Source: Chiloscyllium plagiosum
Taxonomy: Eukaryota
Length of the DNA stretch: 64,000 bases
Direction: 5' to 3'
NCBI RefSeq assembly: GCF_004010195.1
Contig: NC_057717.1
Location: 105,065,904 to 105,129,903, forward strand
The position numbers were made by a program, and so were the translations under genes. The notes under the pieces were generated by a model. The model had not been told where the DNA came from and made no database searches. It saw only the letters and a list, made by a program, of their open reading frames with translations. Below, in pieces: positions 4,477 through 53,215 of the stretch (the first letter of the stretch is position 1; each line of letters begins with the position of its first letter).

Positions 4477-4614
4477 GGAACATGAGGACTGCAGATGCTG
4501 GAGATCAGAGTCAAAAGTGTGGTGCTGGAAAAGCACAGCAGGTCGGGCAGCATCCGAGGAGCAGGAGAATTGACGTTTCAGGCAAAAGCCCTTCATCAGA
4601 ACCCTTCATCTATG
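4477..4614 (-). mobile_element. Short Penelope-derived insertion with hammerhead core
   Basis: 14-bp TSD ACTATAAACAAAGG (4463-4476, 4615-4628); minus strand CTGATGA AGGGC TTTT GCCT GAAACGTC. Confidence 0.8.
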
Positions 4615-6309: not shown

Positions 6310-6733
6310 TAGATTAGATAGATTGCCTACAGTACGGAATCAGCGCTGAAAATGTGTTGCTGGAAAAGCGCAGCAGGTCAGGCAGCATCCAGGGAACAGG
6401 AGAATCGACGTTTTGGGCATAAGCCCTTCTTCAGGAATCACAGGTAATTTGGCCCAACAAGTCCACACCGACCCTCCGAAGAGTAACCCACCCAGACTCA
6501 TTCCCCTACATTTACCCCCGACTAATGCACCTAACACTATGGGCAATTTAGCATGGCCAATTCACCTAACCTGCGCATCTCTGGACTGTGGGAGAAAATG
6601 GAGCACCCAGAGGAAATCCACGCAGACACAGGGAGGATGTACAAACTCCACACAGTCGCCTGAGGATGGAATCGAACCCAGGTCCCTGGCGCTGTGAGGC
6701 AGCAATGCTAACCACTGAGCCACCATGCTGCCT
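6310..6733 (-). mobile_element. HE1-like SINE containing a ~100-bp Penelope fragment (~6340-6440)
   Basis: Reverse complement of the SINE head at 6670-6733; TAGAT-repeat tail at 6310; insert homologous to 12531-12625. Confidence 0.8.
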
Positions 6734-11129: not shown

Positions 11130-12900
11130 ATTACATGTCTCCCCTTACTTAAGAAGGATATACTGGCACAGAGGGAGCCCAACAAAGGTTGACTGGACTG
11201 ATCTTAGGATGCCAAGATTGTCTGAAGGAGTAATCAAGAAGTCTAGCCCTGTATTCTGTAGAGTTTAGAAGTAAGAGAGGGACCACATTGATATTTGCAT
11301 AGTCCTTCTAGGTCTCAACAGGGTACATGCACAAAAGATGTTTCCCTTGGCTCAGGTGTCCAGAATTTGCGAACACAGATTCAGAATAAAGGGTAAGCAT
11401 TTAGGACAAAGGTGAGGAGGCATTTCTTCACTCAGGGTTGGTGAACCTTTGGATTTCTCTACCCCAAAGAACTGTGGAAGCTCATTCATTCAATTTAAGA
11501 CATTTCGCTACATTTCTAGTTTTTGAATACATTATTGGATATGGGGATATGGATTCAGTTCCCCTCTTTCTGACCACTGCTCACTTGATCACAACAAATA
11601 TTTGATTTCTTTTTAGCATGCAGCTACATCACACATATCATTTAAAATATGTGTGATGTAGCTAGATCAACGTCTCTTCATTGGAGTTAGTCCTGGGACA
11701 GCTCACAAGATTGATCCCAGGTACGGAGGGGTTTCCTTATGAGAAGAAGTTGAGTAGGTTGGGCCTGTGCCCATTGGAGTTTAGAAGAATGAGAAGTGAA
11801 CTTATGAAAACATATAAGATTTTTAGAAAGCTTAAAAAAGAGTAGATGCTGTAAGGTTGTTTCCCACTGTAAGAAACTTTGAGATCAGCGGGCATAATCT
11901 CAAAGCAAAATGTCACCTATTTAACAGAGGTGGAGGAATTTCTGCTTTCACAAGGTAGTGATTTGTGGATTCTTTTTAATGCAGAAAACTGTCAAGGCTG
12001 GATTATTAAGCATATTCAAAGATGTAGTAATTGAGATGTAGAAAGTGGAGTTGAGGATTATCAGATCAGCCATGATATTACCATTTGGTGGAGTAGACCA
12101 AATGGCCTACTTTTGCTTTAACATTTTATGGTCTTAGGAACATAGGAACACAAGTAGGCCATTCTGCCCATTGAGCCTGCTCTGCCATTTAATATACTCA
12201 GCTGATTAAATACTTCAAAGTCTTCAAGACACTCCAAGTTTAACAAAAAGAAGAGATAAAAGGGATAAATGAGAATATACTAAACTATCTACTTATAAAT
12301 TCAAATATTTTTAAACACACTATAAAGGCACAATATTTAATTTCAAAATAATTTCGAAGGAACTACAAAGTTTAACAACCTTCTGAATAAAATAAATTCT
12401 CTGCATCACTGTCTTAAATGGAATCCTCCCTATTTTTAAATTGTGCCCCTTAGTTCTAGTCTCCCCATCCAGAAGAAATGTCTTACCTGCATCCATCCTG
12501 TCTATTCCTTTAAGTATCTTTTTATTCTTAGATGGAAATGTGTTGCTGGAAAAGCGCAGCAGGTCAGGCAGCATCTAGGGAACAGGAGAATCGACGTTTC
12601 GGGCATTAGCCCTTCTTCAGGAAGGGCTTTTCCAGCAACACATTTCCATCTCTGATCTCCAGCATCTGCAGACCTCAATTTCTCCTCTTTTTATTCTTAA
12701 GCAATCTAAAATGGCACCGGATTGTGGCAACAATTGAAGCTTTCATTCTATTTTACCGTATTATTCACTATAAAATGTAAGTGATAATAAATCATTCAAT
12801 TCAATAAGTCTTCTAGAGATCAAATCTATTCTTCAAAACTCAAAGAGATACAGACCAAAGATCATCCAATCTCTCTTCATACAACAGACTCGTCAACCCA
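11130..12900. mobile_element. Cluster of old CR1 3'-end fragments (+ ~11130-11550, + ~11700-12135, - ~12137-12900)
   Basis: GAGTTTAGAAGAATGAGAAG motifs; KILKGIDRMDAGKTFLLDGETRTKGHNLKI on the minus strand. Confidence 0.7.
12531..12685. mobile_element. Fold-back Penelope-derived insertion with intact hammerhead core
   Basis: 14-bp TSD TCTTTTTATTCTTA (12517-12530, 12686-12699); inverted arms GATGGAAATGTGTTGCTGGAAAAGC; minus strand CTGAAGA AGGGC TAAT GCCC GAAACGTC. Confidence 0.85.
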
Positions 12901-16399: not shown

Positions 16400-19210
16400 T
16401 CAATAAATTCTTGTTTAATACATTTGAGAGCTCATAAAGGATGCTAATTTTCCTTAGTTAGCAGCACTCTTTTGACTTTAAATCAGAAATTGTGGGTTCA
16501 AGAACCATTCTATTTCAACATAAAATCTAAGATCATATCCCATTGTTGTACTTAATGAGCATTTGTGTTTTCTGCCCTTTGAACTTGGCTTTGAATTTTT
16601 ATCCCTTTACTACTTTGCTTAAGCAAATATCAAAGGAATCATGGCAGGATTCAGAAAGGAGCAGGGAGTTTCTCTCCTGTCCTGCAAAAACTCCTCTCCC
16701 ATATATACAATACCAAGAAAATACCTCACTGTCATCTGGTCATATGTAAAATTATTTTTATTTGTTTATCTAACAGTAGTTGGTGTACATCAAATTCACT
16801 TCCAGAGAGATGGATGTGATAAAGCTATAAATATGTATGCTACACTTTTCTTTATTTTCATAAAAATCAGTGACTGTCATTTTCTCATTTACATCCATTG
16901 ACAACATTAAGCAATTTTAAATCAGGTGTTGAAAATATTGAATAGTCTGAATGAAACAGTTACATATTATCTCAAAAAGCACTCAAAAAACAACTTTATT
17001 AACCTTGAACAGTTTGAAACCAGGTCTTCCCAATCAGATAATCTGCCTCATCTACATGACCAAGACACACAGGGACTACGAATTTATTCACCTACAGAAT
17101 TAGTTGAATATTGGTCAGGCAGATGATGGTGAAAAAGTGTCTTTAGGGAGTTAGTTGTTCCAACATTGCACTTATAGTTTTGAGACCCAAGATGTGGATA
17201 TTAACTGAGATTCCAGATTAATACTATAACCCAGAAATGACCAACACAGTTAGTTAACCTGCAAAGGAATAGCAAATTCTGATGGCTGAAGAATCCAAGT
17301 AACTTTCAAAACTTAAACTAGTTTTAGGAGGATTTTCACTGAAAATAATTTCAGTCTCTCCATACTGACCTACGGTGACAGCAATGTGCATCATGTTCAA
17401 AATGTGCTGCAGCAACTCACCAAGGCTTCCTTAACAGCAGCTTCCAAACTCGTGGCACCTGCCAGTTAGAAAGACATGTGCAGCAGATACATGGGAACAC
17501 TTAGTTCCCTTCCAAGTCACAAGCCATCCCGACTTGGAACTATAAAGCTCTTGTTTCATTGATACCGGATAAAATTCTGCTGTTCCTTCCCAAAAACACA
17601 GTAGATGTACTTACTTCAGCTGGTTTTGCAGGAGCGGTTCACCACCATCTTCTTCAGTAAGCCATAATTACTGGCATTAATAATGGTGCTCACATCCCAT
17701 GAAAGATTTTTCTTAGAAGTTCTTGTATTCAAATTTCCCTTCTCCTCTCCTGAAAGTACTATCTTTTATTGGAGTAAAGTTCCAAATACACTGGTCACCA
17801 TCCAGTAACTTGCCCATACGTACTTGGATTGCAAATGTGTTATGGTGCCAAAGGAAGCCATTTGGCTCATCATGTTTGCACCAATTCTGCAAATGTTTTG
17901 ACTTAGCACCAATCTCCTGCCCTTTCCTATAATTCTGCACGTTGCCTTTTTGAATGCTTCAATTGAACCTGCCTCCATTACATTTTCATTCAGTGCAGTC
18001 CAGACCCTAACTACTCACTGTGTGTAAAAGGTTTTTGACATCTTGCATTTGTGTCCCTTGCAAAACACTTTAAATCTGTGCCCACTACCTCCTAATCCTC
18101 CTTAGGAGCAGGAACAGTTTCTCCCTATCTGCTGTATCCACAGTAAAAGACTGCATCCTTTTATTTTCTGTAATTTTGATTGTGGACTGAAATGGGAAAA
18201 GGTATGTTTCAAAATCAAAGTTTATGGAGGGATTACTGTATTTTTTAAGAGCAAGCTACCAGCATTTATTTGTAAGTGTGTTTACACTGTTGTTTGTTCA
18301 ACCAGCGGGACAGATTTAGTTACAGATGGAACCAATACATGTACAAAGGGAAACTTGGCTACTAACAAGTAGATAATTGGTCTATGGTGTGGTGAACAGT
18401 TGTCAATGATAAAAGCCTTCTGACTATCAACAATTATGTAATAAGCTATTCAGCAATCTAGGAACCTATGGGCATGAATAGGGATGCTCAGAAATCTTCA
18501 AGATGTGACAAGCGAAGTCCTTGACTCGGTGTTAAAAAAAACTGATTGGTTGGCAAATGGACTCTGATTGAGAGAGACATCGCCATGACAAATGCACCCA
18601 TTCATGCTGAGTGACAATTAACAGCTTTGTTTTAATTTCAAATCAGGCAAGTTGGCTCTGAATGGTCAGTGTCAGCCCTGAGAAATGAACCAGCAAACAG
18701 ATGTTACCTATTTTGTTCAGTTGAAACTGATGCAATGCACGTACATGTTCCTTCTGCCACAAAGAACAGGAACTGTGTAATAATGTAAGCAGCTTCCAGT
18801 ACAAGCAAGTCCACTACACTGCAAGCCTGACAACAACAATCTCCACCACTATCTCACTCTCCAGGACATCAGCAATCTCAGAAGATCCAACAAGGAAGAA
18901 AGCAAAATAGTGTTTACAAAGAATTTTAAGAAATTTCCTCTTCTCCTGAATTCCAAGTTGTGCAGGAGTCAGCTCCTTGGATCCCAGCTACCTTTGAGTC
19001 TGATTTTTATACATTAAGTGGTTATTTTATAATGGGAGCAAGATAGTCAAACATGTTCCTACCCTGACTCAATACCCATAACCGTGCACTTTCAATTATA
19101 GCACTTTGCCATTATCTAGAGTTAACCTTCACTTCAACATCCACTAACAATTAGTACAATAAATGCACACACATATGCACAATATGTACAATAAATGCAT
19201 ACACACATCT

Positions 19211-19491
19211 TTGCTACTGCTGCATGATGCTCCAAGATACTATGGACCAGATTCATCCGTGGCAGGTTACAAAAGCTAAGTGATGTTAAAGATGGGTTCA
19301 CGACAGACAATAACAATATTTAATTATGTCTTTATCTATCTCACCTTGGTTATTAATTTTCAGAAATGTTGACCTTTATCTCGGCATTCACAGCCATTAA
19401 TTATTTCTCCCTCTTTTCTCAACATCTGCAGCTCACTTTGGACAGAAACCTACACCAAGGAGATAACTGATGAAGGGGCCTACAAGGAATA
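19211..19491 (+). repeat. 281-bp direct repeat, copy 1 (intron 2)
   Basis: Aligns without gaps to 20582-20862 (offset 1371); 6 mismatches counted by eye. Confidence 0.95.
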
Positions 19492-19970: not shown

Positions 19971-20581
19971 AAAATTTCATGAAAGGTAAGATAATTATAA
20001 ATATTACGCATAAATCTTAGTTCAGTTTCAAATAGGAGTCCTTTGTCATCTCAACAGTATTTCAACACTCTTATGGAAACATAAGTTAATGGAATAGCAC
20101 CGTAAAATGTTCAATTAAACATATGTCTATCATTACACATTGCAAGAGGATATCAACAAACATGCAGAATGGGTATTGTTTTCCATATTTTTCATAAGAT
20201 GCTTGTGTCTTTAGCAGAATCAACATTTGCTGCCCATTCCTAATTTCCCTTGAACTGAGAGACTTGCTCATCCCAACAATGATTCATGGTTACCATTGCT
20301 GAAATTAGTTTTAATTCCATTATTTAAAATTGAATTTAAAATCCACTGCGGGACTTGAACCCATGTCCCCAGAACACAAACCTGGGATTCTGGCTTGTTA
20401 GTCCAGTGACATTACCACTGCACCACTGCAACTCCCAAAATGTGCAAATGACTCTTCATTGTAGATAACTGTGAGATGGTGCATTTTTCTAGGAGCAATA
20501 ATTAAGTGGCAAAGTGCAGGGTGGCATCCATATAAGGGAGGAGCAATAGTTCAAAGAGAAATACAATATTTGTAAAGATCC

Positions 20582-20862
20582 TTGCTACTGCTGCATGATG
20601 CTCCAAGATACTATGGACCAGATTCATACGTGGCAGGTTACAAAAGCTAAGTGATGTTAAAGGTGGGTTCATGACAGACAATAACAATATTTAATTATGC
20701 CTTTATCTATCTCACCTTGGTTATTAATTTTCAGAAATGTTGACCTTTATCTCGGCATTCACAGCCATTAATTATTTCTCCCTCTTTTCTCAACATCTGC
20801 AGCTCACTTTGGGCAGAAACCTACACTAAGGAGATAACTGATGAAGGGGCCTACAAGGAATA
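20582..20862 (+). repeat. 281-bp direct repeat, copy 2 (intron 1)
   Basis: TTGCTACTGCTGCATGATGCTCC...GGGGCCTACAAGGAATA, as in 19211-19491. Confidence 0.95.
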
Positions 20863-21828: not shown

Positions 21829-22934
21829 TATTATCGGACAAGCCAAACAGAGAACAGCCAGGGAATTCCTAGAGGCATGGCACTCATCCACTGATTCAAT
21901 CAATAAGCACATTGACCGGCTACTGCAGCGGACAGCTGGAACTGACAACCGGAAGCAGCAGATAAATGCCGGAGGAAACATCACAGAAGCACTTCACAGG
22001 AGGCTCCCAAGCACTGAGGATGTCACCTAGACAGGGGATGAAACGTCTACAACACAAATTCCCAGCTCGGCGAACAGAACCACAACAGTAAAACATCATA
22101 CCATAGAGACTGATGGCATTAATGCGCATGTCTAGCATGCTGCATCCTAACATGTACATTGACCAGTATGAGCAGTATTACTGGCCTTGTACTGATGAAA
22201 GGATCTGTATTACTTAAAACATGACCAGATTTACTGGTGTCAAGATCAGTTCTATCTACTGGTCCCAAATTTGTTGTACCATCCTGGTAACTTCAACTTG
22301 CAGCAGCATTCAGGTAAGATCTCGACCCAAAAATGGTTCACGGGCTTTGATGGTACAGCAAAATGAATCAGCTAATTTCATGCTGTTTTTGTACAGAAAA
22401 TGAAAATAATCTAAACACTAAGCATAAAAAGCAACATTCTCATATTTCACAAAATGGTTAGGTAGAGATTGGATTGAGGTCAGCCAGAATATTAGTTCCC
22501 TGATTGGGGCTGTTAACCTGGTCCGATCAGGAAGCAGGACAGGTCGTCCTAGAGGTGGCCGGATGGTTTGTCAGGGTGGACTGAGAACTGGAAGGGGCAT
22601 GGTGTGGACCAAGAGTCAAAAGGGACGTAGGGGTGGGCTGCCTTAGAATGGTGGGAGGGACGGGGGATGGGGGGTGAGGGGATTGCTGGGTTTCTGGGGC
22701 TCTGTATTGTATGCACTGTTTTTTTATGTAATTGGACTGTCTTGTATATACAAAATGTCATTGTTACTCTTTTGTAATGATTGAAACTGGGATTTGAGGT
22801 TTGTCCTCATTTCCCTGAAAACAGGTTGAAAGGTAGGGTATGGGGCCTGGCTTTGCTGCTCCTTTCCCTTGTAAAATTGCTGTTTCTCTGAATACAGCTG
22901 TTAACATTAATTGTTTTATAAACTGTGAATTGTT

Positions 22935-24372
22935 TAGAACATAGAAACCTACAGCACAGAACAGGCCCTTTGGCCCACAATGTTGTGCCGAGGTTTAATC
23001 CTAATGTAAAATATAATAACCTACGCATCCCTCAACTCACTGATCTCCATGTGCATGTCCAGCAGTCACTTAAATGTCCCTAATGACTCTGCTTCCACCA
23101 CCACCGCTGGCAATGCATTCCATGCATTCACAACTCTCTGAGTAAAGAACCCTCTATACCTCGCTGACATCCCTTCTATACCTTTCCCTTAATATCTTAA
23201 AACTATGACCCCTCATACCCGTCAATCCTGCCCTGGGGAAAAGTCTCTGGCTATTGACTTTATCTATTCCTCTCACTGTCTTGTATACCTCGATCAGGTC
23301 TCCTCTCTTTCTCCTTCTCTCCAGAGAGAAAAGTCCAAGCTTTTTCAACCTTTCTTCATAAGGCAAGTCCTCCAGTCTAGGCAGCATCCTGGTAAACCTT
23401 CTTTGCACCCTCTCCAAAACCTCTGTATATTTTCTATAGTAGGGCGATCAGAACTGGACACAATATTCCATGTATGGTCTTGCCAGGGACTTGTAGAGCT
23501 GTAGCAAAGGTTCGCGGCTCTTAAACTCGATCCCCTTGTTAATGAAAGCCAAAACACCATATGCTTTCTTAACAACCCTATCCACTTGGGTGGCAACTTT
23601 GAGGGACCTATGTATTTGCACACCCAGATCCTTCTGTTCCTCCACACTTTCAAGAATCCTGTCTTTAATCCTATATTCAGCATTCGAGTTCGACTTTCCA
23701 AAATACATCGCCTCGCATTTATCCAGGTTGAACGCCATCCGCCACTTCTTAGCCCAGCTCTGCATCCTGTCTATGTCGCGCTCCAGCCTGCAATAGCCCT
23801 CGATACTATCGACACCACCTCCAACCTTTGTGTCATCTGCAAATTTACTAACCCACCCCTCAACTTCCTCATCCAAGTCATTTATAAGAACTACGAAGAG
23901 CAGAGGCCCAAGAACAGAGCCCTGCAGGTAGCCACTCACCACTGACCTCTAGGCAGAATACTTTCCATCTACAACCACTTTCTGCCTTCTGTCAGCCAGC
24001 CAATTATGAATCCAGATAGCCAAATCTCCCTGTATCCCATACTTTCTGACTTTATGAATGAGCCTACCATGGGGAACCTTATCAAATGCCTTGCTGAAGT
24101 GCATGTACACCACATCCACTGCTCGACCTTCGTCAACCTGTCTTGTCACCTTGTCGAATAACTCAATAAGATTTATTGAGGCATGACCTACCCCTCATAT
24201 AGCCATGCTGACTGCCTTTAATCATGCTGTGCTTTGCCAAATAGTTATAGATCCTATCCCTCAGAATTCTTTCCAAAACTTTGCTGACCATAGACGTAAG
24301 ACTGACTGGTCTGTAATTGCCAGGGATTTCCCTATTACCCTTCTTGAACAGAGGAACAACATTCACCTCCTT
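22935..24372 (-). mobile_element. Relatively young CR1 LINE (RT and 3' end) inside provirus 1
   Basis: PLFKKGNREIPGNYRPVSLTS, DVVYMHFSKAFDKVPH, QGSVLGPLLF, KFADDTK, ERVQRRFTRML. Confidence 0.92.
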
Positions 24373-24600
24373 CCAGTGCCATTTACGTTACATGCAAAAG
24401 TACAGGCATAAATCAGAAAGCTGGAAAGCAAAGGAATCATAAAACCAGTACAGTCTGGAGAAATTACAGCATCGGTTGTACCGATTGTGAAGCCCAACAG
24501 GTCAGTTCACCTTTGTGGGGATTTTAAACAATAATAAACCACTTTTTGCAGTTGGATAAGTACCCAATCCCTCGCACAGAGGACTTGCACACAAAGTTGG

Positions 24601-24633: not shown

Positions 24634-27174
24634 CTGTCTTTCACAAAGCTGGACATGAGTCATGCGTACCTGAAATTGTGATTAGATGAGGATTCCCAGA
24701 GGTATGCTACAATTAATACCCAATGTAGAAGACTGCCTTTTGGGGTAGCATCAGCCTGTGCCATTTTCCAGCAGACAATGGAGAACACTTTACAAGGTCT
24801 AACCCAGGTCAACACTTATCTGGGTGATGCACTAATAACCAGGAAAACCAAGAAAGAACATTTAAAGAACTTGGACAAAGCATTTAAGCATTTCTCCATG
24901 GTGGGTGTTCATCCAGGCACTCTAAGTGACCTGCTTGGGCTAAGAGTCAACAAGACCAAGCTACACTTATTGGAAGATAAAATAAGGGCAATCAAAGGTG
25001 CCCCAGCTCCCATGTCTGTATGGGAGTTTAGGTATTCCCTTGAGTTGGTAAATTATTACGGAAAATACAAATGTAACCTGGCCTCCAGCCTGACACCCTT
25101 ACATCCAGTATCAATAAAGAGTCAGCCTTGAAAATGGTCTCATAGCCAAGATGCAACTTTTAGGGAAGCGAAGAAACAGCTATCATCCTCTAAGGTCACA
25201 CTACGATCCTAAGCAAGATGTGATGCTGTCATGCGATGCCTCCCCATATAGTATCGGGGTAGTGTTAGCTCACCAGCGCCATGGGAGAGGAACACCTGAT
25301 AGCGCATTCTTCCTAGACGTTGGCTAGTGCTGAACAAAAATACACCAAGATAGAGAAGGAAAGTTGGATGGTCATCTTTGGTGTGAATAAGTTCCACCAA
25401 CACCTTTATGGGCGTACATTTGTAATAGGAATGTACCACAATCGCCTGCTAGGTATACTTAAAGAGGACAAGGCTGTGCCACCCATAGCTTCAGGCCGAA
25501 TAAGTGGGCTCTTATTCTGAGTGCTGACAGTTACATGTTGGTACACTGTTCGGGAGGCCAAGTGGCAAATATGGATGCCTAGAGCCACCTCCCTCTGGCA
25601 GATACTCGATTGCTAGTACTGCCACTAGAAGAGCGTCCACTCTGCTTTTAAGCTTTCTGGACACCCTTTCTGTCACCACTGACGATATCAGACTGTAGAC
25701 ACAAAGCAATCCCGCCTTGACAAAACCAAAATAGCTGGCGGTGATTGGGGAAACAAAAGGGCCATCGCAACCAGAACTAATTCCTTTCTGCACCCATCGA
25801 GACCATAGAGGATGGCATATTATTATGGGGAGCAAGAGTAATTGTCCTGAACAAAGTTCACCGCCAGCTACTGGATGAACTCAACTCGGATTATCCAGAG
25901 GTTTCCAAAATGAAGATGTCAGCAAGAAGTTATGTCTGGTGGCCAGAATTGGATGCCAACATAGCTGCAATGGTGGGGCAGTGCCCAGAGTGCCAACAAA
26001 GACAAGAATTAATACCAGCAGCTCCCCCACATTCATGAGAATGGACTCTGTTACTCGTCGACTTCACCAATCCTTTCATGGGGTCTATATTCTTAGTCAT
26101 TGTGGAGTTCATTCAAAATGGTTGGATGTGCAAAGAGCTCATTTGTCAAACATGGGGATGACAACTGAACAGCTGCAAACATCTTTTGCAATCCACAGAC
26201 TCCCGGGGGTGTTGGTCACAAACAATGGGCCATCATTTACCAGCAAGGAATTAAATTATTTTCTAAAGTCAGTCAGCATTCAGCATGTAAGGACAACTCC
26301 ATATTATCCATTGTCCATACAATCTGGCGGAAAGAGCAGTCCAAACTTTGAAGGCAGACTTAAAGAAACAGCCTACAGCTTCACTTGATACCAAACTGGC
26401 CCAGTTTCTGTTTGATTATTGAAACACCCCTCATACCACGACAGGGGCTACTCCAGCAGAGTTGTTAATGGCGAGATGACTCCACCCCAGGTTAAACCCA
26501 ATCTTCCCAGACCTAGGGGAGAGGGTAAAACGGCATCAGGAATGCCAATGCTGAACACAAGAATCCACTAAACAAGAGAGACGGTTTACTTCAGGGGGCA
26601 AAGTTTTGGTGTTGAAACCATGGAAATGTTCCTGCATGGGTGAAAGGCATGGTCGACGTGAGAGCAGGTCTCATGACATACAGGTACAAGAGGTGATCCT
26701 GAACAAGCATATGGACGATATGAAATCTGCAACCTCCCAAACAGAGCAGGAGCAAAATATATCTAGCCCTTCAGAACATCAGGCAAGGCTGTCAGAACCC
26801 ATGGGCTCTCCCATGTGTCTAGCACCGAAGAAACTTCCAAGGACAGAATGAAAATGGCAGATGTCGCAGCCTCGACGCCATTATCACCTGAAGATTTATT
26901 TCTTCTGAAATGCTCTGGGCACAAGAGGCAGGCTACAGTCCAGTACGCCTCACCAGAATCCAAGGCAGAGTTAGGGGAACCAGACGTGGTGCGAAAACAC
27001 CCCACGAGAAGCTGCAGAAAAAACAAGGGACCTATGTACCAGGACTTAGAGGGGGATGGATGTAGTGATTGGAACAAGGTCAGCCAGGCGGACCTCATAG
27101 AATGAGTTCTCTGGTTAGGACTGTTAATCTGGTCCAATTAGGGAGTCCTGACTGACAGGTATAAACAGAAGTGT

Positions 27175-28134
27175 AAAAAATAAGCACTACCGCACTTAGG
27201 TGGTAGTGTGGGGGTTTAAAAAATATATAAACAGGAGATTGTCACTAAAAAAAAATAAACAGAAGTGTACACGGTCTCCACCAACACCCTGCAGTTGTTC
27301 AGGGAGAGGTGGGCACCGCAGGGAGTGGAGTGCATTATTTCCCCCTCCAACTCTATTTTGATTTAGTCCCTACCCTCCCCTTCACTGTTTGATCACACAG
27401 CACTGCCCTTTGATGTGAAGGGCAGTGTTTGTCACTGGCCACCCGGGTGTTTTCCTATCTTCCTGGTGGTGGAATTTGAATAAAGATTCGTGCACTTTGT
27501 GTCTTTCACTGTGTCTTACACCTGCACACACACACCATGGGTGCTGGGGAAGAAAATAAGCACTACCGCCGTTAGGTGGAAGTGTGGGGGTTATAAGAGA
27601 AAAAAAAATAAACAGAAGTGTACCCGGTCTCCACCAACACCCTGGAGTTGTTCAGGGAGAGGTGGGCGCCGCGGGGAGTGGAGTGCAGTATTTCCCCCTC
27701 CAACTCTATTTTGATTTAATCCCTGCCCTCCCCTTCACTGTTTGATTACACAGTGGGGGTAAACAAAAAATACAAGAGTGTCAGAGTTTCTGCTCACTCT
27801 AAAAAAAAGAAAAAAAAAGTAAACAGAAGTGTCCCTCCCCTTCACTATTTGATCACACTGCATTGCCCTTTGATGTGAAGGGCACTGCTGGTCACTGGCC
27901 ACTCGGGTGTTCCTTTCTTCCTGGTGGTGGAAATTGTATAAAGATTCATACACCTTGTGTCTCTCACTGTGTCTCATACCTGCACACACACAACATGGGT
28001 GCTGGGGAAATAATAAGCACTACCACAGGTAGGTGGTAGTGTGGGGGTAAACAAAAAAAACAAGAGTGTCAGAGTTTCTGCTCACTCTGACAGGCTATAG
28101 CGTGGGGGAAAAGGAGAAAAGAAAAAGAAAAAAG
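27175..28134 (+). mobile_element. Stacked 5'-truncated Tx1-like non-LTR retrotransposon 3' ends inside the Gypsy 3' LTR
   Basis: ORF end TVSTNTLQLFRERWAPQGVECIISPSNSILI* (27271-27366) resembles Tx1-clade ORF2 C-termini (recalled similarity); AATAAA, terminal hairpin, GGGGG and poly(A); units separated by TAAACAGAAGTGT. Confidence 0.75.
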
Positions 28135-28629
28135 AACAGGAAAGTCAGGGGTTCTGTTCACTCTAGTAGTTAGCTCTGAACTAGCTGGTAATGTACTATG
28201 CACATGTAACTAAACAGTGACTTGGTGATGGGATACCGGCCTTTCAGGTTACAGCACAGGAGCCATTGGCTGGTCATGTTGACTCCCTGGTAGAACTATT
28301 TATTTATAATTCCATTCCTCCCTACCTTCTTGAATCACTTCACATTCTTCCTTTCCAGAAAAGATTCCAATTCTCTTCTGAATGTCTTTACTATACTCTG
28401 GGATAGCGCATTCCAGACCTTAACCACATGTTACATGAAAACTATTTACCTCATGTCACCTTTGCTTCTTTGCCAATTACTTTAAATCTGTGAGTGTAGT
28501 TGTGGTCCAGAGTCATACAGCACAGAAACACACCCATCAGTCCAATTTGTCCAAGCCAACCAGACATCCTAATCTAACCTTGCACCTTATACCAATATTA
28601 ACAGTTTATTTCTGTTTTCCTGGAGTATT

Positions 28630-29110
28630 CTATGTCCAAATGCAGCAATATTTGAACAATATCTAGGTGTGGACTGACAATTGGTAAATAATGTTTGCAC
28701 TACTGAAGTACAAGGCAATGATCATCTGACAAAAGAGGATCTAACCTTTGTCCCTTCACATTTAATGCCTTTACCATCACTGAAACCCCACTATCTCAAT
28801 ATCCTTGCCATTGACCAGAAATTAAAATGGACCAGCCATATGGCAACAAGAGCAGGTCGGAGGCTAGGAATTCTACAGCAAGGAACTCACCTCCTGACTT
28901 CCCAGAGCATGTCTACCATCTGCCAGGTACAAATCAGGCATGTAATGAAATACTCCCCGCTTGCCTGAATGGGTGCAGCTCCAACAACACTCAATAAGCT
29001 TGGCACTATCCAAGACAAAGCCACCACCTAGTTGGCATCACATCCATAAATGTTCACTCCCTGCACCACCAGCACTTAGGAATAATACTTTATACTGTAT
29101 GCCCTATTCA
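28630..29110 (+). mobile_element. CR1-group LINE 3' fragment (family of 1-2555)
   Basis: IDQKLKWTSHMATRAGRRLGIL...VMKYSPLA. Confidence 0.75.
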
Positions 29111-29139
29111 AGATGCTGAACACTTTATTAAAGCTTTAA

Positions 29140-30266
29140 ACTATTAGGTGAGGAGAAGGGGATTCCTAAGTAGTAGTAAGATTAGAAAGGCAGATGAGAA
29201 TTAATGAAAGCAAGTTAATTAGAAAAGGTAGGCAAGAGCATGAAAGCAAAGAACCTTACAGGTAAAAAAGATGAACTCAGGGTATGATGGGAACATGGGA
29301 TGGGGATATCATAGCTCTTGCAGAAACATGGCTTAGAGAGGGACAGGATTGGCAGCTCAATGTTCCGGGGTTTAGATGCTAAAAGAAGGTTAGAAAGGGA
29401 GGTAGTGCTAGTGGTAGTGGTTCTGGTGGTGATGGTGTTGGGGGGAGTCTTTTTGATTAGGGAAAACATTACCGTCGTACTTAAAGATGACATTTCTGAA
29501 GGATCATGCAGTGAAGCTATATAAGTGGAACTCAAAAATAAGAAGGGGACGATAACCTTGCTTGTACCACAGGACCCCCCAATAGTCAGCAGGAAATTGA
29601 GAAGCAAATAGGTAGAGAGATCTCAGATATATATAAAAATAATTGGGTTGTAATAATGGGGAATTTTAACTTTCCAAACACAAATTAGGCCTGCTATAGT
29701 GTTAAGGACTTGGATGGTAAGCAATCTGTTAAATACATTCATGAAAATTTTCTTTAGCAATATGTAGATGTACCTACCAGGGAAGGATCAAAACTTGACC
29801 TTCTCTTGGGAAATAAGGCAAAGCGAGTGACTGAAATGTTAGTGGAGCAGCACTTTGGGACCAGTGATCATAACTCTATTAGTTTTAAAATAGTTATGGA
29901 AAAGGAGATTCCTTGTATAAAAATTAAAGTTCTTAATTAGAGTAAGGCAGTTTTTGCCAGAATGGGACAGGAACTTTCAAAAGTTGATTGGAGTAGGTAA
30001 AGGGATGACTGGTAAATCGGAGGCTTTCAAAAGTGAAATAACAACAGTCCAGAGGCATTATGTTCCTGTTAGAGTGAAGGGTAAGGCTGGTAAGAGTAGG
30101 GAACAATGGATGAATAAAAATATTGAGTCTCTGGTCAAGAATAAGAAGGAGGCATGTGTTAGGTATGGTCGACTGGGATCATGTGAATCTCTTGGAGAGT
30201 ATAAGAACTGTAGGGGCATTCTTTACAGGGAAATCAGGAAGGCAAAATGGGGATCTGACATTGCCT
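29140..30266 (+). mobile_element. Decayed CR1 ORF2 endonuclease region
   Basis: GAAACATGGCTT (ETWL), WQLNVPGFRC, LDLLLGN, HFGTSDHNS remnants. Confidence 0.8.
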
Positions 30267-41635: not shown

Positions 41636-41842
41636 GAGAATGTGAGGACTGCAGATGCTGGAGATCAGAGTCGAGAGTATGGTGCTGGAAAAGCACAGCA
41701 GGTCAGGCAGCATCTGAGGAGCAAGAGATGCCTGATGAAGGGCCTATGCCTGAAACATTGATTATCCTGCTCTTCGGATGCTGCATGACCTGCTGTGCTT
41801 TTCCAGCACCACACTCTTGACTCCCAACCAATTTAGTCGCCT
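41636..41842. mobile_element. Fold-back Penelope-derived insertion with hammerhead core
   Basis: 19-bp TSD CTCCCA(A/C)CCATTTTAATAG (41617-41635, 41843-41861); inverted arms; CTGATGA AGGGC CTAT GCCT GAAACATT at 41732. Confidence 0.85.
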
Positions 41843-50400: not shown

Positions 50401-51769
50401 CCATTAATTTGTTGGGGTTCCCTGGTGTAGGTTTCCAACCAGGCCAAAGGTCTTCTGCAAACTTATGGAGTCCAGAGCAAATTTTGGTAAAGATTGGTTT
50501 CACAATCACTGATACATCCGCGCCAGTCTCAACCTCCATTATAACTGAGTTAACATTTAACCAGACACTTACTTTAAATAGTTCTGATTTGGATATTGCT
50601 AAGCAATTTAACTGTTCAAGTTACCTGTAGGTGGACTTTCCAGGGTGTGCACTCTCCTGGATACCTGCCTATGAGTTCTCTTACTCAATTCAAGCCTAGT
50701 GGCACACTTTTGCTGGTTGGTATGCATTCACATATCAGCTGCAAGTACAATGGTCTGCTTGCCCAGACCCTTGAGAAAATTTTAAACCATTTTGTCGAAG
50801 TTTGGCTTTGTTTTAGGGTTTTGCTGTGAGCTGACCAAGAGTGCCTCTATTCAGGATACGTCCTGAGTATGGTATTGCAATTGCATTCACTCAAGTGGTG
50901 TTCTCCAAATTCAGTTGAACTGGTGAGCGTGTTCACTTCCATTGGAATACCCTGTAACTCATATGTTCCAATTGCTGCATTTTCTAGTGACAGTGTGATA
51001 CCTGTTTGAAGTCCAGTTGGACTTCAGCTCATAGACATTTTTGCATGGTCACATCATTAATCCCACATATCAAATGGTCTCTCAGCATCTCACTTGGGGT
51101 CAAACCAAAGTCACATGCCTCTGCCAGTCATCTTAACCTCGTCAAAAATCCCAATACAAATTTCCCTGGTTCGCGAACTGCCAAATAAAACTGATAGCAT
51201 TTCAGAATTAGAGGCGGCTTGTGGTCATAATATTCCTTAGCTAAATCTGGCAACTCTTGAAAGGTTTTAGTATGTGGTGCCTCAGGAAAATTAGGCTCCT
51301 AATAACGGAAAAAGCTACAGGTCCATAAGCTGTCAGGAGAATTACTTGTTGCTTTTCGTCTGCCCCAATGCCATTTGGCTGGAAAGAAATAGCACATTCT
51401 TTCCACATACAGGGCCCAATCTTTGAGTCAAGCTTCCCAAATAGCATTATAATGCCAGAAATGCTTACCCCCAACTCAAAGGCAACTGTTATGAGTGAAT
51501 CTCTTTAGGTATGTGGTTTTCTCTTGTCCCCACTGCAATAACTCCAGGAAGGCTAGTACTTGGTCACTAAGTCACCCTTCATTTACACATGCATAGTATG
51601 TGACACTGACCCAACTAGCTCAGAGTTGGCACCTACTGTGAACAGAACCCCTGATACTCTATTTATATCAGTCAGTCAGGACTCCCTGATTGGGGCTGTT
51701 AACCTGATCCAAATCAGTGAACTCAAGTTTGATGAGGTCTACCTGGCTGATCTCGTTCCAATCACTACA
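47426..51769 (-). mobile_element. Gypsy LTR retrotransposon, near full-length decayed provirus 2
   Basis: 5' LTR 51769-51534 (TGTAGTGATTGG...TTATTGCA) then PBS-like GTGGGGACAAG; gag MLFGKLDS; protease MEVETGADVSVI; RT/RNase H remnants; integrase PWFQSHIEYADPFM..FLVIMDAH; partial 3' LTR ~47600-47426; flanks CAGTC/TAGCC may be a diverged 5-bp TSD. Confidence 0.9.
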
Positions 51770-53058
51770 TAGCCCTTCTGAAAGCTCACTTCAACCTGTT
51801 CCCAGGCCTCCACTATTAAAGTTATAAACTGGTTGGTAAGGTGAGGAGAGTCATTCCATTATTTTTCATACCAACCGAACCTCCAATCATTGCTTTCTAA
51901 TGTTAGAATGATATCGGCCCAATTCAGGGAATCACAGGCACATGGATTCCTTGGAATCATTAGACTCACATGCTAAATAGTCCTGACTTTCCAAATGGTT
52001 TCTAATTTTTCTGAAATATTCAGACATTGCTTTTGTCCACTATTAAAGAGAGTGGTTTCAGGCAAAATCCTCAGTCAAATATTTACCATTAAATTTAAGT
52101 AGAACACATTGAATATGGTGTTATCACTACAGTAATACTATAGTAACAGATCTGCTTTATATATTTCCATTTCACAGTTGGTGGTGCCTTGAACTATCAA
52201 GGCCATACACTGTGGAATTTCCACCTTAAACTTCTCAATAATAACCGATTCTCCTTAAAAGCTACTTTGACCAAGACCGGGCATTTCCGTTAGTAATGTT
52301 TGTCCAATTATATTCCTATGAAACTTCTGATCAATTCTCTCAAAGACAATGTATAAATGCAAGCTCTGAATGTTAAACAGCATCAATTTTCTCAAAGGAA
52401 ATGACCTATGCTGAGTTTCTTTTCCATTTTGACTGCCTGGCACTTAACCAAGCAGTACTCTTGTCAGTGTCAGCCCAGATAATAGCTGACTACCATGTCA
52501 TGTTCCTGGGGATAGGGAAAACAAAGAGAAAATGAAGAGGACATTACAGTAAATTGTGTTGCTGTTATCATGACCACTGGTCAGAAGTGCTATGGACAGT
52601 TCTGACTGTAAAACACATTTTGGAATTATAAGAGTGCTGATGCAGCAAAAGATAGCTGCAGATGTAAATTAAATGATGTCTGGAGAAGGAGAGACCCCTG
52701 AAATGTCACTCGAAAGGTATAAAAGAAATTCCAAACAATCTTTCAAAAGGAGGAAAGAGGTAAGTCAAAAAAGACTGGACTGTGATCTTGTGGCTACAAA
52801 GATAATTAGGAACGAATGCCCTCCTACTAAACAGAAAGCCACCCAGTGTGAATTATGCCCTAAACTGTAGATCCATTTTGTAGAATGCACAAGGACAGGT
52901 GCTAAAAAGACAGTTTCAACTGTACTGGATGGGCTACAGGGACGAAAGTTCTCAGGTGTGTATTAGCCTGGATTAGCGTACTGTGAAGTCCATACTTGAA
53001 GAACTATCCTATAGTCACCCATCAGTTGCAAGTAAAGGGACTCTTACTCTGAGCCAGC

Positions 53059-53215
53059 AGTTCAGGCAGCATCCAAGGAGCAGCAAAATCGACGTTTCGG
53101 GCAAAAGCCCTTCATCAGGACGTCGATTGCTGCCTGAACTGCTATGCTCTTCCAGCACCACTAATCCAAAATCTGGTTTCCAGCATCTGCAATCATTGTT
53201 TTTACCTGTTTTTAC
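53059..53215. mobile_element. Fold-back Penelope-derived insertion with perfect minimal hammerhead core
   Basis: 18-bp TSD CTCTTACTCTGAGCCAGC (53041-53058, 53216-53233); minus strand CTGATGA AGGGC TTTT GCCC GAAACGTC GA (53087-53120). Confidence 0.88.

Follow-up and report, generated by a model that had tools for sequence, protein, structure and literature searches.

Stacked 3' ends of a poly(A) retroposon behind the TATA box of a Gypsy-type LTR in the shark Chiloscyllium plagiosum

Does a LINE in the genome of the shark Chiloscyllium plagiosum use the promoter of an LTR retrotransposon as its landing site? The question is raised by a locus within a 64,000-nt stretch of one contig (the window), where the 3' LTR of a Gypsy-type element is broken just after its TATA box. 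An earlier note on this DNA had described the intervening sequence as 3' ends of a poly(A) retroposon, here called E, stacked behind the TATA box with a regenerated 13-nt duplication, and had proposed that the E family uses the LTR as a landing pad. The description is borne out, while the proposal is unlikely to hold for E at large.

The host element belongs to the Ty3/Gypsy group by the reverse transcriptase–RNase H–integrase order of its decayed pol remnants, along which the Pfam domains RVT_1, RT_RNaseH(_2), Integrase_H2C2 and rve follow one another, and by an LTR that runs from TG to CA behind a purine-rich tract (Table 1). Loose ends of read contigs accumulate before 27061 in all four public sequencing runs (among the 24 of 5653 loose ends listed), and contig depth drops to single copy in the bin 28248-28331. 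No partner 5' LTR for the element was found within the 64-kb window. An LTR-like piece at 22456-22545 was considered for this role and rejected, as its identity is about 69% and it lies nearer to the family majority than to the host LTR.

The left part of the LTR ends in the 13-mer TAAACAGAAGTGT (T), which occurs exactly at 27162, 27256, 27609 and 27820 on the forward strand; these are its only exact matches in the 64 kb, and six in all are obtained when up to two mismatches are allowed. Four exact 13-mers inside 670 nt far exceed what chance would give. The variant TAAACAGGAG is found at 27228. Each of T copies 2-4 is preceded by an A-rich tail and followed by a piece of E, and the LTR resumes at 28135 with the target copy AACAGGAAAGT, which has mismatches to the 13-mer at 3 of 11 positions. 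The earlier note had read the T copies, the variant, the tails and the point of resumption correctly, and it was also right that the LTR is truly interrupted. The related LTR at 51775-51545 on the reverse strand aligns with the interrupted one on the left up to 27169 and on the right from 28145, with 3 nt of its own sequence between the two aligned parts. Since this LTR is uninterrupted at the spot, 27175-28134 is inserted material.

Table 1. Features of the interrupted LTR and its surroundings, in window coordinates
Feature	Position	Strand	Remarks
Decayed Ty3/Gypsy-type pol remnants (RT, RNase H, integrase zinc-binding and core domains)	24682..27105	+	stops and frameshifts; ORF pieces
Purine-rich tract directly before LTR, polypurine-tract-like	27047..27060	+	sequence reading; putative role
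3' LTR, left part, begins TG	27061..27174	+	TATAAA at 27161-27166; first T at 27162-27174
Unit U0	27175..27255	+	92.5% identity to E 285-324
U0: last 40 nt of E with 3' hairpin	27175-27214	+	
U0: tail	27215-27227	+	
U0: TAAACAGGAG + ATTGTCACT	27228-27246	+	19 nt, read as LTR read-through
U0: A9	27247-27255	+	
T copy 2, exact	27256..27268	+	
Unit A, longest E piece	27269..27608	+	322 nt + 18-nt tail
T copy 3, exact	27609..27621	+	
Unit B	27622..27819	+	93.9% identity to A
B: E 1-132	27622-27753	+	then last 6-7 nt of E
B: tail	27760-27771	+	
B: 29 nt of a different LTR variant	27772-27800	+	ends CACTCT
B: poly(A)	27801-27819	+	
T copy 4, exact	27820..27832	+	
Unit C	27833..28101	+	89.8% identity to A
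C: E 105-322	27833-28047	+	
C: tail	28048-28058	+	
C: LTR variant as in B	28059-28088	+	
C: further 13 nt	28089-28101	+	
Mini-piece	28102..28134	+	last 7 nt of E (GTGGGGG) + decayed A-rich tail
LTR, right part	28135..28256	+	diverged target copy AACAGGAAAGT, then LTR remainder ending CA
Related LTR without insert, ~80% identical	51545..51775	-	empty-site reference; alignment to interrupted LTR

The array is read here as four E units (U0, A, B and C) and a 7-nt mini-piece rather than the six inserts originally counted, 27175-27255 being better taken as one unit, U0. The common 3' end that had been ascribed to five inserts, with the E 3' hairpin, is present only in U0, A and C, while B and the piece at 28102-28134 keep just the last 7 nt. 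Similarly, the E pieces do have three different 5' ends, as differing truncation points had been claimed, but A (27269) and B (27622) begin at the same E nucleotide.

The portion of E in the window is its 3' end only: the last 31 codons of an ORF and a structured 3' UTR some 225 nt long. In unit A, the open frame of 31 codons ends in a TAG stop at 27364-27366 and is followed by the 3' UTR, where hairpins lie at 27400-27428 and 27560-27585. The frame is intact in both A and B, and U0, A and C have retained the 3' hairpin, with z-scores of -3.0 to -6.2. Other genomic copies of E run upstream of the start of unit A (39 contigs in run X1 and 39 in run X3), but the window holds no E coding sequence upstream of 27269 and no RT domain of E. 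The A-rich 3' tails, 13-nt direct repeats and 5' truncation are hallmarks of poly(A) LINEs that insert by target-primed reverse transcription (TPRT). The L1-type TTTT/AA nick consensus is absent: T starts after every tail, and in B it does so after a G. From the sequence, the nick would fall within the TATA box, between TTTA and TA of the bottom strand, at an A/T-rich site off the L1 consensus.

Searches for relatives of E yielded little. A protein search with the 31-aa ORF end gave four matches with E-values of at most 0.001, none LINE-related; each of these proteins is internally repetitive and aligned over 4-7 stretches, and they were rejected as homologues and read as spurious. The 89-aa minus-strand ORF that spans the 3' end of unit A, T and the start of B gave no candidate. 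In Rfam, no family reached its gathering score, and three sub-threshold matches had E-values of 0.29-0.4. A metagenome scan with the 21-nt E hairpin returned seven loci and no E copy; six of the seven share only 21-22 nt, and the other (L007) adds a 70-nt stretch at 75.7% identity.

The abundance of E was assessed from summed contig depths at ≥80% likeness in four public runs, which make the copy numbers rough ones, and a contig that matches more than one T copy may have been assigned to a single one. The depth of E was about 1.0-1.3 million in X1, 1.8-3.5 million in X3 and 0.09-0.23 million in X10, that of the LTR about 88,000, 60,000 and 25,000, and that of the T-to-E junction at position 27621 was 676, 560 and 231, at single-copy contig depths of about 15, 8-28 and 5, respectively. 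X10 comes from a related organism; a contig from that organism covers 28145-28869, and alignments end at a masked A-rich stretch. Passages of PMC4494074 treat a LINE as target-specific if one kind of sequence makes up more than 20% of its flanks. By depths only, E is suggested to have roughly 10^5 copies and the LTR a few thousand (E at ~4-57 times the LTR depth, depending on the run), and the T-to-E junction ~30-45 copy equivalents, depths that speak against E as such a LINE. Bins that contain a tail and T show no excess beyond what the E parts alone explain. With E so far above the LTR and the junction limited to tens of copies, it is unlikely that the E family as a whole is dedicated to the LTR.

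Nevertheless, the junction is multi-copy, and it has company. Among the 15 of 1179 joints listed, T is followed by E from about position 98 (X1, two contigs, depth 161), TAAACAGGAG by E from about position 41 (X3, two contigs, depth 344), and LTR position 27155 is joined to E at about position 146 (one contig each in X1 and X3). Such further T-adjacent junctions at other truncation points indicate that the site was hit repeatedly. The repeated insertion proposed in the earlier note thus stands as far as these junctions and the LTR flanks of three units go, but it does not extend to A and B, which, having the same 5' junction, are not independent events.

How much of the array was then made in place? 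One or two ordinary LINE insertions followed by rearrangement at the DNA level (unequal exchange, slippage, gene conversion and deletions) would account for the common junction of A and B and for a 154-nt repeat, including A9 and T, that is 95% identical between 27247-27400 and 27600-27753. A and B also share the minority letter C at E position 8, where 96% of the family depth reads G, and, on junction and letter together, one or more of the units may have arisen by local duplication instead of a fresh insertion. The LTR-variant tails of B and C agree at 47 of 48 positions on E parts that differ by about 11%, which hints at local rearrangement or template switching, and homogenisation would likewise yield identical T copies. 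As an account of the whole array, this explanation is nonetheless unlikely. There are three kinds of tail structure, unrelated to one another, in U0, in A and in B and C. Between the local LTR and the LTR variant of B and C, identity reaches only 77-80%, so the variant was imported and not copied on the spot, and the poly(A) that follows it in B requires an RNA step. Nor is the array periodic: TRF found no long-period array in 26000-29500, only short A-rich and 12-nt repeats, and the repeat spacings are 353 nt in one part and 458-460 nt in another. The units are thus not head-to-tail copies of one period, as in a simple tandem duplication or a satellite. Finally, the units have diverged by 6-15%, while the four T copies are identical. 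Divergence in situ was given an estimate of about 0.03 by our own arithmetic from the unit identities; target site duplications (TSDs) from later insertions fit better. That the array is an assembly artefact of a repeat-rich stretch is very improbable. Its interior, 27088-28058, is unbridged among the contigs listed, but the right junction is reproduced in X1 (28059-28870, 3 differences), which may be the assembled sample, and in X3 from a different study (28084-28515, 0 differences), and the differences between the units are unlike the product of collapsed or expanded reads.

If the units did arrive separately, the site may have been chosen by the enzyme of E. E, or a subfamily of it, would then be a sequence-specific Tx1-type LINE with an endonuclease that recognises the TATA-box region of the LTR, inserting sequentially and helped home by co-transcribed LTR sequence. 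This would explain why one site was used by units of different structure, why the LTR flanks of three units come from other LTR variants, and why more T-adjacent junctions occur in the run contigs. Cartilaginous fishes have Tx1-like repeats and lack full L1, according to passages of PMC8455134, and both LTR-preferring Tx1 families and tandem inserts that sandwich a TSD appear in the parts of PMC4494074 consulted. In X1, an E:LTR depth ratio of ~12-15 could in principle mirror arrays. We consider this explanation unlikely all the same, given the depths of E and of the junction and the lack of excess in the tail-plus-T bins; in addition, E equivalents number only 2-3 per LTR at this locus, and no E unit occupies the only other related LTR of the window. 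It is still less probable that E was carried within the LTR, as a U3 insert copied to both LTRs in each Gypsy cycle, with units stacked at the repeated T by template switching of the Gypsy RT. The T-to-E joint and two other T-adjacent joints each reach ~10-45 copy equivalents, suggesting amplification after the junction had formed, and the related organism shows a comparable junction depth (231 in X10, at a single-copy depth of about 5). LTRs with foreign small-RNA-like sequences are also known (PMC10886601). However, the different units would still demand several independent E insertions at T, the poly(A) behind the LTR variant in B demands LINE-type retroposition, and the second LTR of the host element is absent from the window.

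A hot spot or a small LTR-resident sublineage is the better fit compared with family-wide targeting. The reading we favour, though with belief and doubt in about equal measure, is that E, a non-LTR retroposon with a poly(A) tail and many copies, entered an old Gypsy LTR at a single nick site on at least three separate occasions, through a sublineage resident in the LTR while the family is dispersed. With each TPRT event, the 13 nt on the right-hand side of the nick would be duplicated and the site thereby rebuilt, allowing inserts to stack. In U0, B and C, the unit's own tail is followed by 19-43 nt of LTR, so the progenitors of these units were already at the same LTR position elsewhere. The tail/T region of U0 and of B contains an A/T-rich hexamer similar to a poly(A) signal; the read-through stops 15-27 nt beyond this hexamer, which may have acted as such a signal, and the read-through RNAs would have been retroposed again. 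The small sublineage would thus keep re-entering the LTR family, or be co-copied with it. C, with its decayed tail and a right-hand TSD changed at 3 of 11 positions, fits the oldest unit, and would come first in the order of events. At least three independent landings in one LTR are improbable for an endonuclease that merely prefers AT, so that an additional bias or recombination between occupied LTRs is needed. A more elaborate form of this idea, which we regard as speculative and unlikely, is a shark LINE sublineage that is resident in one Gypsy LTR family, lands after the TATA box, is transcribed from or through the LTR, uses its tail and the regenerated target as a poly(A) signal, and is guided back to other LTR copies by the LTR flank of its RNA. 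Any role of the LTR promoter is likewise conjectural, and E may both borrow that promoter and silence its host, as the earlier note had supposed.

Some of these features have counterparts in known elements. E resembles human L1 in its poly(A) tail, 13-nt TSD, 5' truncation, A/T-rich nick and carried downstream flank. Human L1 also undergoes 3' transduction. E differs from human L1 in its conserved 3' hairpin, and reuse of a site to the single nucleotide is atypical of L1. The promiscuous L1 has the TTTT/AA nick consensus (PMC1950540, in the parts consulted), whereas E would nick away from a poly(T)-A junction. Passages of the same source present Tx1L, in Tx1D of Xenopus, and R1Bm, in 28S rDNA, as stringent LINEs with site-specific endonucleases (PMC1950540); these occur almost only in their own targets, whereas E is apparently mostly dispersed. 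Closer to the present case, the crocodilian Tx1-clade LINEs Tx1-8_Crp and Tx1-4_AMi insert preferentially into LTR retrotransposons, as passages of PMC4494074 report, so the pairing is not new in kind; a family-wide LTR preference is doubtful for E, which is known here from its 3' end only. The same passages describe sequential same-site insertions "sandwiching a TSD" by SINEU-3/Tx1-Mar in Mariner-N4_AMi, where non-autonomous pieces ride on LINE machinery, and say that co-transcription with the target strengthens specific integration (PMC4494074). The likeness to E lies in the stacked same-site insertions and the 5'-truncated copies at the same target; the difference is that the target is a DNA transposon, which flanks 77 of 88 truncated copies (PMC4494074, same passages). 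A literature search, with a reach that stopped short of Repbase and Dfam, found no description of this LINE/LTR pair in cartilaginous fishes.

The locus is probably a neat insertion hot spot, not the mark of an LTR-dedicated LINE family. As a mere hot spot, it would be an ordinary nested-repeat locus and a warning for repeat annotation, as models of this LTR family may contain pieces of LINEs. If the site preference is real, it would provide a cartilaginous-fish addition to the few LINEs for which another transposon serves as a safe harbour, with a landing point in the core promoter of an LTR. It could then be tested whether the host promoter revives 5'-truncated LINE pieces and whether 3' flanks borne on the RNA steer integration.

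A decayed Ty3/Gypsy-type element supplies the 3' LTR in which the region 27160-28150 lies. This LTR begins at about 27061, behind a purine-rich tract, where loose contig ends cluster in all four of the public sequencing runs compared with the window, and ends at about 28256, where contig depth drops to single copy. A related LTR on the opposite strand runs uninterrupted across the site; the left part aligns to it as far as 27169 and the right part again from 28145, the related copy having three nucleotides of its own in between. The 960 nt from 27175 to 28134 are therefore inserted material, which begins 8 nt past TATAAA. Just upstream of the Gypsy pol remnants is a CR1/L2-like reverse-transcriptase remnant, which probably truncates the 5' half of the element.

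Within the 64-kb window, exact matches to the 13-nt target motif TAAACAGAAGTGT (T) lie at 27162, 27256, 27609 and 27820 only, and copies 2-4 are each preceded by an A-rich tail; the four positions and the tails had been given in an earlier note and stand. TRF found no long-period tandem array across these units, and Rfam gave no match above threshold. Every insert is a piece of a single element, E, an abundant poly(A)-tailed LINE-type retroposon, numbered here from the first nucleotide of unit A, its longest copy. Unit A begins with 96 nt of open frame (31 codons and a stop codon), and the same frame is open in unit B; two hairpins lie in the 3' UTR that makes up the remainder of A, and the terminal one is retained in three units (z-scores -3.0 to -6.2). 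Other copies run on upstream of the start of unit A (39 contigs in run X1 and 39 in X3, one common extension, agreement 0.80-0.84), so E is a 5'-truncated longer element and not a 340-nt unit.

Repeat features of the window and the inserted units
Feature	Position	Strand	Description
Unit U0	27175-27255		last 40 nt of E, tail, TAAACAGGAG + ATTGTCACT, A9
Unit A	27269-27608		322 nt + 18-nt tail
Unit B	27622-27819		E 1-132, last 6-7 nt of E, tail, 29 nt LTR-like ending CACTCT, poly(A)
Unit C	27833-28101		E 105-322, tail, LTR-like 30 nt as in B, 13 further nt
Mini-piece	28102-28134		GTGGGGG + decayed A-rich tail
Gypsy pol pieces	24682-26388	+	matches in order RVT_1, RT_RNaseH, Integrase_H2C2, rve
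Related LTR	51775-51545	-	~80% identical to the studied LTR
LTR-like piece	22456-22545	+	nearer the family majority than the studied LTR is
CR1/L2-like remnant	23154-24387	-	RVT_1 matches on three ORF pieces
Direct repeats	19207-19491, 20578-20862	+	285 nt each, 98% identical, 1371 nt apart
SINE-like repeat	4512-4602, 6347-6437, 12533-12623, 41672-41762, 53031-53121		~91 nt, five copies, 65-96% identical to the reference copy

The earlier parse is revised at 27175-27255, where two inserts had been seen and a single unit, U0, is now read; the 19 nt ahead of its A9 may be read as LTR sequence brought by read-through. The LTR-like stretches of B and C are identical at 47 of 48 positions and only 77-80% identical to the local LTR, and so come from another LTR variant. 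The tails of U0, A and B/C are three unrelated structures, so RNA-mediated events took place at least three times at a single nucleotide position. The units are 6-15% apart (identity A-B 93.9%, A-C 89.8%; 3' ends of U0, A and C mutually 85-90%), yet the four T copies are identical, for which we estimate from the unit identities a chance of about 0.03 if all had diverged in place; T copies generated at later insertions fit better. C looks like the oldest unit, with a decayed tail and, on its right, a target copy (AACAGGAAAGT at 28135) that deviates at 3 of 11 positions. A and B cannot count as independent, since they share a 5' junction, inside a 154-nt repeat (95% identity) that includes A9 and T, and both carry C at E position 8, where 96% of family depth has G. 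The several different 5' truncation points described earlier thus do not extend to this pair.

Contigs of the four runs were aligned to 26400-28900 at ≥80% likeness; X1 and X3 come from different studies of the same organism, X10 is from a related organism, and X16 is a possible RNA run. Single-copy contig depth is ~15 in X1, 8-28 in X3 and ~5 in X10. Summed depth in the E 3' UTR reaches 1.0-1.3, 1.8-3.5 and 0.09-0.23 million, respectively, against 88,000, 60,000 and 25,000 (means) in the left part of the LTR (27072-27155), 84,000, 69,000 and 26,000 at 28210 in its right part, and 676, 560 and 231 at 27621, the final T base ahead of unit B. As summed depths of short contigs, in which a contig fitting several T copies may sit at only one, these values correspond roughly to an E copy number of order 10^5 in the window's organism and tens of thousands in X10, a few thousand LTRs, and 30-45 copies of the T-to-E junction exactly as in A and B. 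Bins with tail and T have no depth above that explained by their E parts. The depths argue against a family with most copies at T, and the proposal that the family uses the Gypsy LTR as its landing pad is unlikely for E as a whole, E being far more abundant than the LTR and the junction so rare.

The outer parts of the LTR have high depth and the first ~45 nt past the insertion site (28145-28190) low depth (bin 28080-28163, mean 1,727 in X1); within the LTR family, variability seems far higher at the centre than at the ends. A further short repeat of very high abundance lies just downstream of the LTR, at 28500-28583, where X1 depth leaps to ~220,000 and loose ends occur before 28509 and behind 28545. 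Of the other repeats in the window, the 285-nt direct repeats could be a recent duplication or the two LTRs of a small element, and a short SINE-like repeat recurs.

Among the joints and loose ends listed (15 of 1179 and 24 of 5653), three joints run from LTR or T sequence into E at other positions: T and one additional letter into E from ~98 (X1, 2 contigs, depth 161), TAAACAGGAG and one additional letter into E from ~41 (X3, 2 contigs, depth 344), and LTR 27155 into E at ~146, the letters between not given (one contig each in X1 and X3). Two more listed entries have a short spacer between an A-rich tail and truncated E that, judged by eye, may resemble T variants. The site has thus been used elsewhere with other truncation points, and junction depths of 10-45 copy equivalents mean that T-adjacent junctions were amplified after formation.

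The most likely mechanism, which we hold at about an even chance, is repeated landing of E at one nick site in the LTR, with a sublineage resident there. E would integrate via target-primed reverse transcription, the first nick, as placed by the junctions, falling between TTTA and TA of the bottom strand, within the TATA box; this is A/T-rich but not the L1 consensus TTTT/AA given in PMC1950540. Duplicating the 13 nt that follow the nick on its right would rebuild the site. Transcripts of a resident E piece would continue past the tail and T and enter the LTR, those of U0 and B ending, to judge from positions, 15-27 nt beyond an A/T-rich, poly(A)-signal-like hexamer in the tail/T region. Such read-through RNAs, retroposed again, would account for the LTR-derived flanks that U0, B and C carry. 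Both the jump within B and the 7-nt mini-piece past C break beside the G-run at the E end, which suggests template switching there. A small LTR-resident sublineage would thereby recycle inside the LTR family, with most of E apparently dispersed. In the LTR-like piece at 22456-22545, similarity stops directly past GACAGGT, within 1-2 nt of this nick site, and the sequence from 22546 onward is unrelated and not E; either a further insertion at the spot or coincidence could account for this.

A truly LTR-specific Tx1-type family is unlikely: repeated use of the site and the literature agree with it, and the contrast in abundance between E and the LTR is at odds with it. Local rearrangement of one or two inserts would explain the common A/B junction and the near-identical B/C tails, but does not fit three unrelated tails or a foreign LTR variant bearing its own poly(A), and we consider it rather improbable. 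Carriage and stacking during Gypsy replication, which suits the multi-copy junctions, would still require several primary insertions and is quite improbable. That the array is an assembly artefact is very improbable; its right-hand part is matched by an X1 contig (28059-28870, 3 differences) and an X3 contig (28084-28515, none), and none of the contigs listed bridges its interior.

Repeated insertion at the LTR site by E has parallels. Target preference is found in many Tx1-clade families, Tx1-8_Crp and Tx1-4_AMi favour LTR retrotransposons as insertion sites, and sequential insertion produced tandem SINEU-3 copies "sandwiching a TSD", according to Kojima (2015, PMC4494074), whose supplements may name the LTR targets. 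Cartilaginous fishes, by the whale shark paper (PMC8455134), have Tx1 L1-like repeats and no full L1, which makes Tx1 a plausible starting assumption for this poly(A) LINE; no RT domain of E is present in the window. The literature searched holds no description of this LINE/LTR pair in cartilaginous fishes. A LINE with LTR preference is not new in kind, and at best a small sublineage, not a whole LINE family, is dedicated to a Gypsy promoter. The stacked inserts first noticed here are real, and they make a tidy case of repeated site use with carry-over of 3' flanks.
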